Part shown: positions 21,978-62,094 of the stretch, piece after piece
Numbering within the stretch: the first letter of the stretch is position 1
Layout: each line of letters starts with the position of its first letter
The notes under the pieces: model-generated
What the model was told of the DNA's origin: nothing
The model's input: the letters and a program-made list of their open reading frames with translations, nothing else
Database searches by the model: none
Made by a program: the position numbers and the translations under genes
Assembly (NCBI GenBank): GCA_964016885.1
Contig: OZ024745.1
Location: 121,396,001-121,460,000 of the forward strand
DNA: 64,000 bases
Direction: 5' to 3'
DNA from: Eledone cirrhosa
Taxonomy: Eukaryota

Positions 21978-22112
21978 GTTTATTTTTGGTGGCCTTCTAT
22001 AGTTTAGCAGTGCTAATATGTGTTCCTGTCTGCTATGTCCAGTTAAAACTTGGGTCACTTTTTCGATCTGGAACTGTTGGCATTATCGGATCAGTTATGC
22101 CCCTTTTTAAAG
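21978..22112 (+). CDS. SLC6/NSS-family transporter-like gene, internal exon (TM2), phase 1-1, 135 nt
   Basis: Acceptor ttttttttcag, donor G|gtaaga. Translates (G)LFLVAFYSLAVLICVPVCYVQLKLGSLFRSGTVGIIGSVMPLFKG, which aligns with the SLC6 pattern GAFLIPY...GIPLFYMELALGQ...G......PLFKG. Confidence 0.92.
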
Positions 22113-24121
22113 GTAAGACTTCCTCGTCACTATTTTCTTTGTTTCTTTCTTTGTTTTTCTTCTTATTATTATTCTACTTAAGGTCGGTGAATTGGCAGTA
22201 TCAGTAGAGAGTCGGACACCATGCTTTCCAGCATAGAGTTACGCCCTTTTATGGTCTGAGTTCAAATCCTTCCGAGGTTAACTTTGCCTTTCATCCTTAC
22301 GGGGTCAATAAAATAAAGTACCAGTAATGCACTGGGGTAATTGCTGGCCTTGTGCCAAAAGTAGAAACAATTATTATTCTACTTGTTCTTGAGAGGATCA
22401 CAGGGGTGCAGTCATCAGACATGCCTACCAAAGGGTCATATCAGAAGCAACCATCTCCAAATGATCCAGTTAGATTCCTAAGCATGACTAACCAAGCTCA
22501 TGGGTGTTATCCAACCATCTTGCTTGTGAATCAAACTTGCAACCTCACGATTGTGAGTCTAATTCTCTATCTACTTAGCCACGCAGGGTAGAAATGTAGT
22601 GCTTACAGTATTTTGAATCACCCAGCACTGGCTGATGAAACTGAGGGATGGGGAGCTGATACCAAACCTGGACATCTGTATATAAATACAGGAGGAACTA
22701 TTAACAGAGAGGGAACTAAAGATCTGCTCCATGATGCTTGTAACAAAGTGAAGTTCAATAAAACTACACAATAACCAGATGGTGGGGTGGGGACAGAGGT
22801 ACGGATGTAATTAGGAAGGGTGATAGGTCTGAATGTCAATTAGAGATTCTACAAGATTATTATTTGATAACATTTTAAAAACACGTTTATATTTGTTTAA
22901 TTAAATGTATGCTGCACATACTTTACACACACACACACACCATCATCATCATCATCATCACCATCATCATCATCATCATCTTTACATCTTTTGTGCTGAT
23001 TTCAGCAAAGTAGAGCAGTATCTCCATGATCTTCATTTTTCCTTTGTTTAACCCTTTAGCATTTAAACCGACCGTATCTGGCCAGAATTCTCTTACCTCT
23101 TTCTGTTCAAACCAGCCCTTCTCCTTTCTTTCCCCAAAAACTTCCTCAAGTTATTGACGCACTGGAATTAGACATATTGTCTTTAATGCATTGAAATGTC
23201 CGTGATCTCCAGCAGATCTCCAGTAGAAGGGATTGTCCCCCATTTGTGCTTTCCTTTTATTTTTATATATATATATATAATATATATATATAATATATAT
23301 ATATATATATATATATATATAGAGAGAGAGAGAGAGAGAGAGAGAGAGAGATGCTGGTGCCCTGATAAAATGCATCTAGTACACTCTGTAGAATAAGAGA
23401 ATGTCTATAGATGAGATATAGGTCAGTGGATCTAAGTACTGGCTTGGTCTGTGACAACCCATTCAACCCTTTGCTAGCAGGGAAGTCAACATTAAATGAT
23501 GATGATGATATATTTAAAAATCACTAAATATATCATAACAGGATTTAAATCATTGAAATAGAATTTTAGAATTTTATCAAGCTTATTATGCTTTCCTTTT
23601 ATTTTTACAATCTATCAAAACTAAAAAAAAAAAGACTTTTCTTTCAATTTATCTCTCAGTACCATTTTGGTGAACTGTTCAGCTATTCCATATATATATA
23701 TATATATATATATATATATATATATATATATATATATATATATATATATATATATATATATATATATAACAAAGAGGGTGTGGTAAGATATCAGATGGAC
23801 CAATGTCTTTTATATATATATATACATATATTGAAGCAATATTCCTTCTTATTATCATAAACTAATGATTTACATATCAGCTGCTGCTCTTTGATTAGTT
23901 CTTCCTTAGCTGGTTATTTGGTTTAACTTTCATTTCTTCAGGATACAAAATAAGTTTTAAAAATAATGACTTTCTTAAAAGATTTTTTCATTTCTTATCT
24001 CTCCTTTGATAAGGAAGAACTAAGACATGTTTTAATACTAGTTGCACTAAATAGCTTTATAGACATTGCTAAAGGTCAGAGCAGTACAGTGATTATTTTT
24101 ATGTGCACTTGACTTCTGTTT

Positions 24122-24385
24122 CTGTAGTTCTAAACTAATTTCTGTGTAGTTCTAAATCTAATTTCTGTGTAGTTCTAAATCTAATTTCTGTGTAGTTCTA
24201 AATCTAATTTCTGTGTAGTTCTAAATCTAATTTTGTGTAGGTCTAAATCTAATTTTGTGTAGGTCTAAATCTAATTTTGTGTAGATCTAAATCTAATTTT
24301 TGTTGGTCTAAATCTAATTTCTGTGTAGGTCTAAATCTAATTTTGTATAATTTTAATTCTAATTGTGGATAGTTCTAAATTTAAT
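24122..24385. repeat. 22-23 bp minisatellite, about 11 copies
   Basis: Unit ctaaatctaatttctgtgtagtt. Confidence 0.9.
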
Positions 24386-24996
24386 TTTATGCAGAAGGTT
24401 TACATTTTATATTAAATACTTTATGCACCTACATGAAAAATGAGTTAACCCTTTCATTACCATATTTCAAATGAAGGATACAACCTATGATTTTAAAACA
24501 TTTAAAAAATAATCAGGAATTTGAAGGGATTTAGTAATATAACTGATTTTTTTCATTATTAAGCCAGCTTTTGTAACAATACTTAACAAAATTCTTACAT
24601 AGAGTTATGAAGAAATGTGGTTGGTGTTAGGAATGGCCCTAGAAAACCTGCCAGATAGTCCTATACCAGCGAGACACGGTCACCTGACCAATCTTGCCTC
24701 AAATGGGATAATTCCCATCTAACCTATCCTATGAAGATAGACGTTAAACGATGATGATGATGATGATATACTCTTTAAAATACTCTGAATTGAGAGATCA
24801 CAGCTCTGTTACTATGGACATGTTGTTAGAATGTCTCAGGTAAGAATCACTGGACAGATTTTATGGGCAAAACCAACTGGCAGGAGATCCAGGGGTAGAC
24901 CCCGAGCAAGATGGTTGGATAACATCCATAAGCTTGGCTGGTCACGCTTGATAGAGTAATTGAGCATTGAGGACTGAACATTGTCATATTGGAATA

Positions 24997-26212
24997 ATAC
25001 TACTACCACCACCACTACTACTACCACCACCACTACTACTACCACCACCACTACTACTACTACTACTACTACCACCACCACCACCATCACTACTACTACT
25101 ACTACTACTACTACTACTACTACTACTACTACCACCACTACTACTACTACTACTACTACTACCACCACCACCACTACTACTACTACTACTACTACTACTA
25201 CCACCACCATCACTACTACTACTACTACTACTACCACCACCACCACCACTACTACTACTACTACTACTACTACTTCTACTGCCACCACCACTACTACTAC
25301 TACTACCACCACCACTACCACCACTGCTGCCACCACCACTACTACTACTACCACCACTACTACTACCACCACCACCACTACCACCACCACTACTACTACT
25401 ACTACCACCACCACTACTACCACTACTACTACCACCACTACTGCTACTACTGCTACCACCATTACTATTACTACTGCTGCTACTACTACTACTACTAACA
25501 CCACCACCACTACACCTGTTACTACTACTACTACTACTATCACCACCACCACTACTACTACTACTAACACCACCACCACTACACCTGTTACTACTACTAC
25601 TACTACTATCACGACCACCACTACTACTACTACTACCACCACTACACCTGCCACTGTTACTACTACTCCCACCACTACTATTACTACTGCTGCTACTACT
25701 ATTAATGCTGCAAGTACTACCACCACCACCTCCACTACTACTACTACTACTACTACTACTACTACTACTACTACTACTACTACTACCAATATGACTACCA
25801 CCACCACAACCTCCACAATACCAGACCACCACCACCACCACTACTACTACTACTACTACTACCAATATGACTACCACCACCACAACCTCCACAATACCAG
25901 ACCACCACCACCACCACTACTACTACTACTACTACTACCAATATGACTACCACCACCACAACCTCCACAATACCAGACCACCACCACCACCACTACTACT
26001 ACTACTACTACTACCAATATGACTACCACCACCACAACCTCCACAACCACCAGACCACCACCACCACCACTACTACTACTACTACTACCACTACCAATAT
26101 GACTACCACCACCACAACCTCCACAACCACCAGACCACCACCACTACTACTACTACCACCACTACCACTACCACCACAACCACCACCACTACTACTACAA
26201 TTACTACTACTG
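24997..26212. repeat. Compound (ACT/ACC)n array, about 1.2 kb
   Basis: Seen directly. Ends about 30 nt before the TM3 exon acceptor. Confidence 0.95.
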
Positions 26213-26240
26213 CTCATTGTTGTTTTTCAATATATTTCAG

Positions 26241-61440: not shown

Positions 61441-61442
61441 AT

Positions 61443-61588
61443 TGCAGCATAGAGTTATGGCCTTTTATAGTCTAAGTTCAAATCCTGCCGAGGTTAACTT
61501 TGCCTTTCATCCTTACGCGGTCGATAAAAAAGTACCAGTAACGTACTGGGATAATTGCTGGCCTTGTGCCAAAAGTAGAAACAATTAT
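61443..61588 (+). mobile_element. 5'-truncated SINE family 1 whose tail runs into an (ACT)n array
   Basis: gcagcatagagttatggcc...ccaaaagtagaaacaattatta, then (ACT)n. Confidence 0.8.
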
Positions 61589-61940
61589 TACTACTACTAC
61601 TTCTACTGTTGCTGCTACTACTATTACTATTACTACTAGTACTACTACTACTACTACTAATACTACTACTACTACTAGTACTACCACTACTACTAATACT
61701 ACTGCTACTACTGCTGCTGCTGCTGCTATTACTACTACTACCACCACCAACACCACCACTACTTCTACTACTACTACTACTATTACTACTACTACTACTA
61801 CTACTACTACTATTACTACTACTTCTACTACTACTACTTCTACTACTACTACTACTACTACTACTACTACTACTACTACTACTACTACTTCTACTACTAC
61901 TACTACTACTTCTACTACTACTACTACTTCTACTACTACT
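61588..61940. repeat. (ACT)n array ending about 40 nt before the TM8 exon
   Basis: Seen directly. Confidence 0.95.
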
Positions 61941-61981
61941 AAATGAATTAACATCTGATAAAACTTCCATTCTGTTTACAG

Positions 61982-62094
61982 GTCTTCCTATGTTGCTGGT
62001 ATCAGTGGCAAATACATTCTCGGAATACAGTTTATCACCAATTATTGCTTCACTGGTCTATCTCTCTTTCTTCTTACTGGCATTGCTCCATCAG
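61982..62094 (+). CDS. SLC6-like exon (EL4, TM8), phase 1-0, 113 nt
   Basis: Acceptor ctgtttacag, donor CAG|gtaggt. Translates GLPMLLVSVANTFSEYSLSPIIASLVYLSFFLLALLHQ, similar to GPGLAF..YP.A...P....S.LFF.ML..LGLDSQ. Confidence 0.88.

Follow-up and report, generated by a model that had tools for sequence, protein, structure and literature searches.

What becomes of a sodium-coupled transporter once the residues that bind its ions and close its gates are gone? SLC6 is a model of sodium-coupled transport and a source of major drug targets, and a deeply conserved member without ion sites and gates would be a natural test of the fold without sodium, be its role that of a pseudo-transporter or that of a carrier, uncoupled or coupled to protons. 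Such a gene lies in a window of 64,000 nucleotides (the whole stretch of DNA analysed) from Eledone cirrhosa (assembly GCA_964016885.1, contig OZ024745.1, positions 121,396,001 to 121,460,000), in which 21978..62094 of the forward strand comprises exons 2-9 of a 14-exon, 621-residue degenerate SLC6 gene. A first-pass annotation had described this segment as an intact SLC6 gene that seemed to have lost its ion-coupling and gating residues, possibly under selection for a new role. The gene belongs to a real, conserved and apparently undescribed degenerate SLC6 subfamily.

The eight GT-AG exons recognised in the window do join into one open frame, as first reported (995 nt, 331 residues, no stops), and the whole gene is made up of 14 GT-AG exons, in which 621 codons are followed by a single stop. 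A single-exon search led to two named orthologues, with which the remaining exons were mapped. The exon encoding the first transmembrane helix (TM1) was not found by tblastn within 60 kb upstream; a genome search then placed it at 68 kb, and intron 1 is about 90 kb long. Strong orthologue matches in the 3-Gb genome fall at one locus only, in a search that may miss weak matches. The exons are as follows (EL, extracellular loop).

L017:1831-1969, about 68 kb upstream of the window: exon 1, 139 nt, TM1, placed by genome search.
21978..22112, forward strand: exon 2, 135 nt, TM2, with Gln68 (22040-22042) instead of a conserved Glu.
26241..26382, forward strand: exon 3, 142 nt, TM3 and the start of a short EL2, with Arg104 (26276-26278; LeuT V104 position), Phe108 where the gating Tyr is expected, Glu111 (26297-26299), an N-glycosylation sequon and no disulfide Cys.
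36213..36260, forward strand: exon 4, a 48-nt micro-exon in EL2.
46437..46569, forward strand: exon 5, 133 nt, TM4, its joint to exon 6 seen spliced.
47044..47235, forward strand: exon 6, 192 nt (the canonical 135 nt plus 57 nt), TM5 and a lengthened EL3.
51896..52002, forward strand: exon 7, 107 nt (the canonical 104 plus one codon), TM6, with Met271 for the Cl- Gln, His272 (51920-51922), Ser275 kept and His289 for the inner-gate Tyr.
54758..54882, forward strand: exon 8, 125 nt, TM7, with the Na1 Asn and Cl- Ser lost (Tyr308/Pro312 in the intron register).
61982..62094, forward strand: exon 9, 113 nt, EL4 and TM8, with Leu376-His377 (His at 62089-62091) for the Na2 Asp-Ser.
64986-74223 in extended window coordinates, 1-10 kb downstream of the window: exons 10-14, with His381 encoded in exon 10.

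EL3 is longer by 19 residues, the product of the additional 57 nt in exon 6, while EL2 is short, and the extracellular face is remodelled. The TM1 exon is absent from two octopus gene models, one with an unrelated N-terminus (O. sinensis XP_029658307.2) and one beginning in TM3 (O. bimaculoides XP_014777554.1), probably because the first intron is so long.

The gene has the same SNF match, intron layout and predicted 12-TM fold as other SLC6/NSS proteins (PF00209; GAT1, GAT3, dDAT, SERT, B0AT1, LeuT). All five proteins scanned match PF00209 at 105-122 bits against a cut-off of 27, and the SLC6 intron positions and phases, with exons of 135, 133, 125 and 113 nt, are common to canonical paralogues of the same genome, as the first-pass annotation had proposed from vertebrate genes, which were not compared. 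A model of the Argonauta orthologue (predicted local distance difference test score, pLDDT, 86.3; predicted template modelling score 0.87) contains helix breaks in TM1 and TM6. It superposes on dDAT, SERT and B0AT1 (Z up to 37.6, root-mean-square deviation 2.8-3.0 A over about 500 residues), and SLC6 transporters fill the first 50 rows of each of two structure searches. A LeuT-type fold of 12 helices with discontinuous TM1 and TM6 is thus predicted; the alignment behind the model (103 sequences) included canonical SLC6s, and its conformation is therefore uninformative. A glycosylation sequon occurs in EL2 of 11/11 proteins checked.

Residues were placed in three registers, namely HMMER against human GAT1/GAT3, a MAFFT alignment of 132 rows, and intron positions homologous with four canonical paralogues of the same genome. 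The three concur in TM1, TM2, TM3, TM6 and TM8, with a 3-residue disagreement in TM7. HMMER and the intron positions bear out substitutions first read by eye: LGLDSQ to LALLHQ in TM8, the TM6 Cl- Gln to Met271 with Ser275 kept, YYN to MFS in TM3, the TM2 Glu to Gln68, SYN to SHL at the inner gate, GPGLAF to GLPMLL, and absence of the EL2 disulfide Cys. In TM1, outside the window, GLGNVWRFPY has become GYSGLTSFPF. For TM7, the intron-colinear register and MAFFT place the Na1 Asn and Cl- Ser at Tyr308 and Pro312, which is favoured because the 125-nt exon equals the canonical one in length, and HMMER places them at Leu305 and Gly309. The loss of both residues that had been claimed for TM7 holds in the octopod under either register, but the register itself had been off by one residue.

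The Na1 ligand positions are therefore occupied by Gly34, Ser275 and Tyr308 or Leu305 instead of the canonical TM1 Asn, TM6 Ser/Thr and TM7 Asn/Asp, and the Na2 ligands of TM8 (Asp/Thr then Ser) by Leu376-His377. At the positions of the Cl- site are Phe53 (for the TM2 Tyr), Met271, Ser275 and Pro312 or Gly309, with no acidic substitute. The outer Arg-Asp gate has become Ser37/Asn435, and the inner Arg-Asp/Tyr gate Pro14/Leu391/His289. Fifteen side chains of our own choosing were scored, at positions that we assign to ions, gates and substrate. Only Ser275 is kept (1/15), against a median of 14/15 in canonical SLC6 hits (n=91), 89 of which keep at least 10; the number is 1-2 in nine full-length orthologue rows and 2-5 in ten distant degenerate relatives. 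Among canonically conserved sites, 26/45 Gly/Pro/Trp positions are retained versus 7/33 polar ones. The loss of canonical coupling residues is well supported, and it is very unlikely that the protein is still Na+-coupled through backbone carbonyls, Ser275 and shifted ligands. Ser275 and TM1 Tyr28-Thr29-Val30-Gly31 are indeed kept, as is a TM7 Ser in bivalves under the HMMER register, but both Na1 asparagines and both Na2 hydroxyl/acid positions of TM8 are lost, and no replacement Asn or Asp lies nearby in TM1, TM7 or TM8.

The loss of functional residues is also the one feature that a decaying pseudogene would explain. Splicing was examined at the joint of exons 5 and 6, where one contig (depth 4.5, no mismatches) of the public run X24, which carries the same organism code as the DNA runs and whose kind is not on record, omits the 474-nt intron at GT..AG; this runs counter to the lack of spliced reads that the first-pass annotation had named as a mark of a pseudogene. 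The joint was absent in the other three runs compared, among which X1 and X21 had no useful cover of exon 6 and X1 covers repeats only. In a contig of run X3, from another organism, 9/9 listed exon 6 differences are synonymous third-codon changes (five further differences on the contig are unlisted), where the silent share of possible changes is 22%, giving a rough chance probability of 1e-6 with transition bias left out of account. Full-length orthologues from the cuttlefish cluster and oyster lie on Logan contigs 2-3 kb long, with 104 contigs for one of these orthologues, and we infer that the contigs are spliced transcripts. The gene is intact, spliced and under purifying selection, as had been supposed despite its lost Na/Cl and gate residues, and with an intact 14-exon frame and orthologues in three mollusc classes the probability of a pseudogene is negligible.

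The degenerate state is shared well beyond octopods. Orthologues are 94.6% (O. sinensis), 84.5% (Argonauta), 77.1% (cuttlefish-cluster protein), 45.3% (Solemya) and 46.3% (Haliotis) identical, and were also found in Mya, oyster, Nucella/Babylonia, Plakobranchus, Candidula, Mactra and Sinanodonta. When 1.84 billion representatives were searched with a profile, eight matches reached at least 290 bits, the next falling to 200. Innovation within cephalopods was considered and rejected, as orthologues occur in bivalves and gastropods. The rewrite of the ion sites is accordingly neither recent nor specific to cephalopods, but older than the divergence of cephalopods, bivalves and gastropods, with relatives in other lophotrochozoan phyla. 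The nemertean Lineus has a sister protein in which Lys replaces the Na2 serine and His381 is missing. Other degenerate proteins were found in Capitella, Owenia, Lingula (two) and a JGI record, and some form a second mollusc group, B. In the ESM Atlas only generic SNF clusters were found, the nearest mostly arthropod and of mixed names, which is a lead at most.

Phylogenetic analysis began with 157 proteins, of which 26 were dropped by length, and 19 of 132 aligned rows were dropped for low coverage, leaving 113. A FastTree of these rows separated the degenerate rows from all canonical ones with support of 1.0, and a quick IQ-TREE tree under a site-mixture model (40 rows: 17 degenerate, 22 canonical, one ungrouped) recovered the same split with a Shimodaira-Hasegawa-like approximate likelihood ratio of 100; the tree is unrooted, leaves the sister group unresolved, and long branches could inflate support for the split. 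The degenerate proteins did not group inside the canonical GAT, TauT, XTRP3/SIT1, ATB0,+ or PROT subfamilies. One protein, Haliotis rubra XP_046544078.1 (P0090), is partly degenerate, with 7/15 sites kept, and falls between degenerate and canonical rows in both trees. Exons of 107 and 97 nt are common to the gene and its paralogue in group B, while canonical paralogues have 104 (4/4) and 100 (2/2), and these sizes, together with shared derived motifs, support the degenerate clade independently of the trees. On this evidence, molluscs, a nemertean, annelids and a brachiopod share an old lophotrochozoan SLC6 orphan clade without canonical ion and gate residues.

Paralogue B is itself intact in the E. 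cirrhosa genome (G000:C2:389117681-389170500; L029-L034), with 14 exons and 599 residues, of which 516/599 are identical to its cuttlefish orthologue and 144/523 to the main gene. Its tail motif, EPSAPP, recurs in proteins of cuttlefish, Solemya, Potamilus and Plakobranchus. PSAP is a binding motif for ESCRT-I.

In the mollusc orthologues of the main gene, seven near-invariant charged residues occupy positions that are neutral in canonical SLC6s, namely Arg104, Glu111, His272, His377, His381, Asp439 and Arg440. By register, residues 104, 280 and 381 correspond to LeuT V104, F259 and I359, which shape its pocket (PMC9599917), and 377 to the Na2 serine S355 (PMC6590891), as given in the accessible parts of these papers. 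A basic residue is found at the V104 position in 12/13 orthologue rows versus 0/91 canonical, at S355 in 15/15 versus 1/91, and at I359 in 14/15 versus 1/90; Glu111 is present in 11/11 rows and Asp439 and Arg440 in 14/14 each. The TM6 and TM8 histidines noticed at first are likewise conserved (His272 and His377, both 15/15). ApcT has a lysine at the Na2 location that is described, in the portions available, as a proton site (PMC6398981, PMC5983779). With the new charges at pocket and Na2 positions and the precedent of the ApcT lysine, we tentatively prefer a Na+/Cl--independent, possibly proton-coupled carrier for an anionic solute with a rebuilt basic pocket, at a likelihood slightly short of even. 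His377 would replace Na2 with a fixed or titratable positive charge, by analogy with ApcT, leaving transport either uncoupled or coupled to protons; Arg104 and His381 would face into the substrate pocket, the small Ser/Ala280 could give it room, and Glu111 and Asp439-Arg440 may pair as new gating or stabilising contacts. The premises of the new role proposed in the first-pass annotation (an intact, selected gene with canonical residues lost) thus stand, and the pocket residues appear to tilt it from carrier, sensor or auxiliary subunit towards the first.

Several points weigh against a carrier. Neither canonical gate pair survives, nor does the TM1 carboxylate clamp; the residues of the aromatic lid differ from one orthologue to another (His/Phe/Gly at 108, Tyr/Asn/Thr/Phe at 274); and pocket-lining positions are conserved at 0.77 compared with 0.69 for other TM positions (p = 0.06). 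Side-chain orientation in the pocket depends on the register, the favoured model was built with canonical SLC6s in its alignment, and an alignment of the clade alone (12 sequences) gave an unusable model (pLDDT 37.5). The ApcT lysine is on TM5, not TM8. Among the ten distant degenerate relatives Arg104 is found in 1/10, Glu111 in 0/10 and a basic residue at 377 in 1/10, and with most charges absent there and TM1 shortened in paralogue B, the clade ancestor may have ceased transport.

The varying lid, a pocket scarcely more conserved than the other TM positions and distant relatives without most of the charges keep a non-transporting role close behind the carrier. A fold retained as a sensor, scaffold or auxiliary subunit that moves no solute is a realistic though less probable explanation; its buried charges would hold the protein in a single conformation or bind a sensed ligand, and the cytoplasmic tail would recruit partners. 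Both gates are lost as pairs, and TM11 is conserved much as a surface for partners could be, with 10/30 positions invariant and a mean of 0.75 in orthologues versus 0.41 in canonical SLC6s, but orthologues are expected to be more conserved than mixed paralogues in any case. The terminal Val is present in 10/10 orthologues and tail motifs are conserved, but canonical SLC6s also have conserved tails. Paralogue B, with its conserved EPSAPP motif, lacks about seven TM1 residues relative to the main gene, and a signalling precedent exists in C. elegans SNF-12 with STA-2 (available part of PMC11580886). The near-invariant charges, which lie at known pocket and Na2 positions and have not drifted, argue the other way.

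Binding or carriage of a transition metal is improbable. The spacing of His377-x-x-x-His381 on one face of TM8 could coordinate Zn, Cu or Ni, and metal carriage by a LeuT fold is known from Nramp (PMC6398981, in part). His377 is found in 15/15 orthologues and His381 in 14/15, with His also at position 376 in 5/14, so that several bivalves and abalone have His-His-x-x-x-His. A cation would, however, be repelled by the Arg that occupies the adjacent pocket position, residue 376 is variable, and the nemertean protein has Lys377 and no His381. Returning to the carrier, a broader and doubtful proposal would join it to paralogue B: an undescribed lophotrochozoan SLC6 subfamily would have been off sodium coupling for more than half a billion years, with a mollusc branch of proton-driven anion carriers using His for Na2 and a sister paralogue that moves no solute and acts as a sorting adaptor by way of a PSAP tail of ESCRT type.

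Compared with other SLC6/NSS proteins, the gene is only about 20-22% identical and differs in its single retained side chain, missing EL2 disulfide, basic pocket and own long-stemmed branch. In the Na+-independent ApcT and LAT1 a basic side chain stands in for Na+ in or close to the Na2 location, according to the accessible text of PMC6398981 and PMC5983779, as His377 would do here; they belong to another family (APC) and carry a lysine on TM5, whereas the histidine here is placed on TM8 by register. Altered ion sites are also known in B0AT1/B0AT2, KAAT1/CAATCH1 and the orphan SLC6A16 (PMC8310414, PMC6590891, in part); the characterised atypical members described there alter one or few ligands and stay cation-coupled, whereas the new clade loses nearly all. 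C. elegans SNF-12 and Drosophila blot are SLC6 proteins with signalling or developmental roles. Bedraggled is another such protein, and insect orphan SLC6s may likewise be degenerate. SNF-12, blot, bedraggled and other insect orphan SLC6s were not identified among the profile matches, their orthology to the clade not having been tested.

Older surveys of insect orphan SLC6s reportedly noted divergent members, and degenerate SLC6s as such may be known already. A description of the clade was not found in a literature search, including the accessible parts of PMC9815951, 10.1101/2024.04.14.589438, PMC3029318, PMC8382897 and PMC9679248; six orthologue accessions were uncited in that search, the sole string match being irrelevant, and three searched supplementary files of PMC9712504 (a fourth was unreadable) held no match. 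A 503-sequence SLC6 tree (bioRxiv 10.1101/301192, seen in part) may contain the gene unlabelled. In the available text of two octopus cell-type papers, all slc6 mentions are of the marker slc6a15/18, the sequence of which was not compared with the gene. Automatic database names within the clade conflict (GAT1-like, taurine transporter-like, XTRP3-like, B(0+)-like, proline transporter-like, GAT3-like), and with octopus, oyster and abalone copies labelled as GABA, taurine, proline or XTRP3 transporters, expression studies could misread them as a neurotransmitter marker.

Some 24 kb downstream of the SLC6 gene, and in the same orientation, is a GST-domain gene (98002-107558 in extended window coordinates; L004-L005). 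The fused SLC6-GST model of O. vulgaris, CAI9717206.1, was rejected as the native form, as the SLC6 stop follows the last exon and the GST-like gene begins about 24 kb further on; the fusion is probably an annotation artefact. The introns contain open frames that to the eye resemble decayed LINE/RTE reverse transcriptase/endonuclease fragments, at 20520-21218, 42808-43607, 50361-50813, 59653-61367 and 62983-63700, and in intron 3 tandem arrays at 26895-27683 and 28250-29980 yield long repeat-derived open frames.

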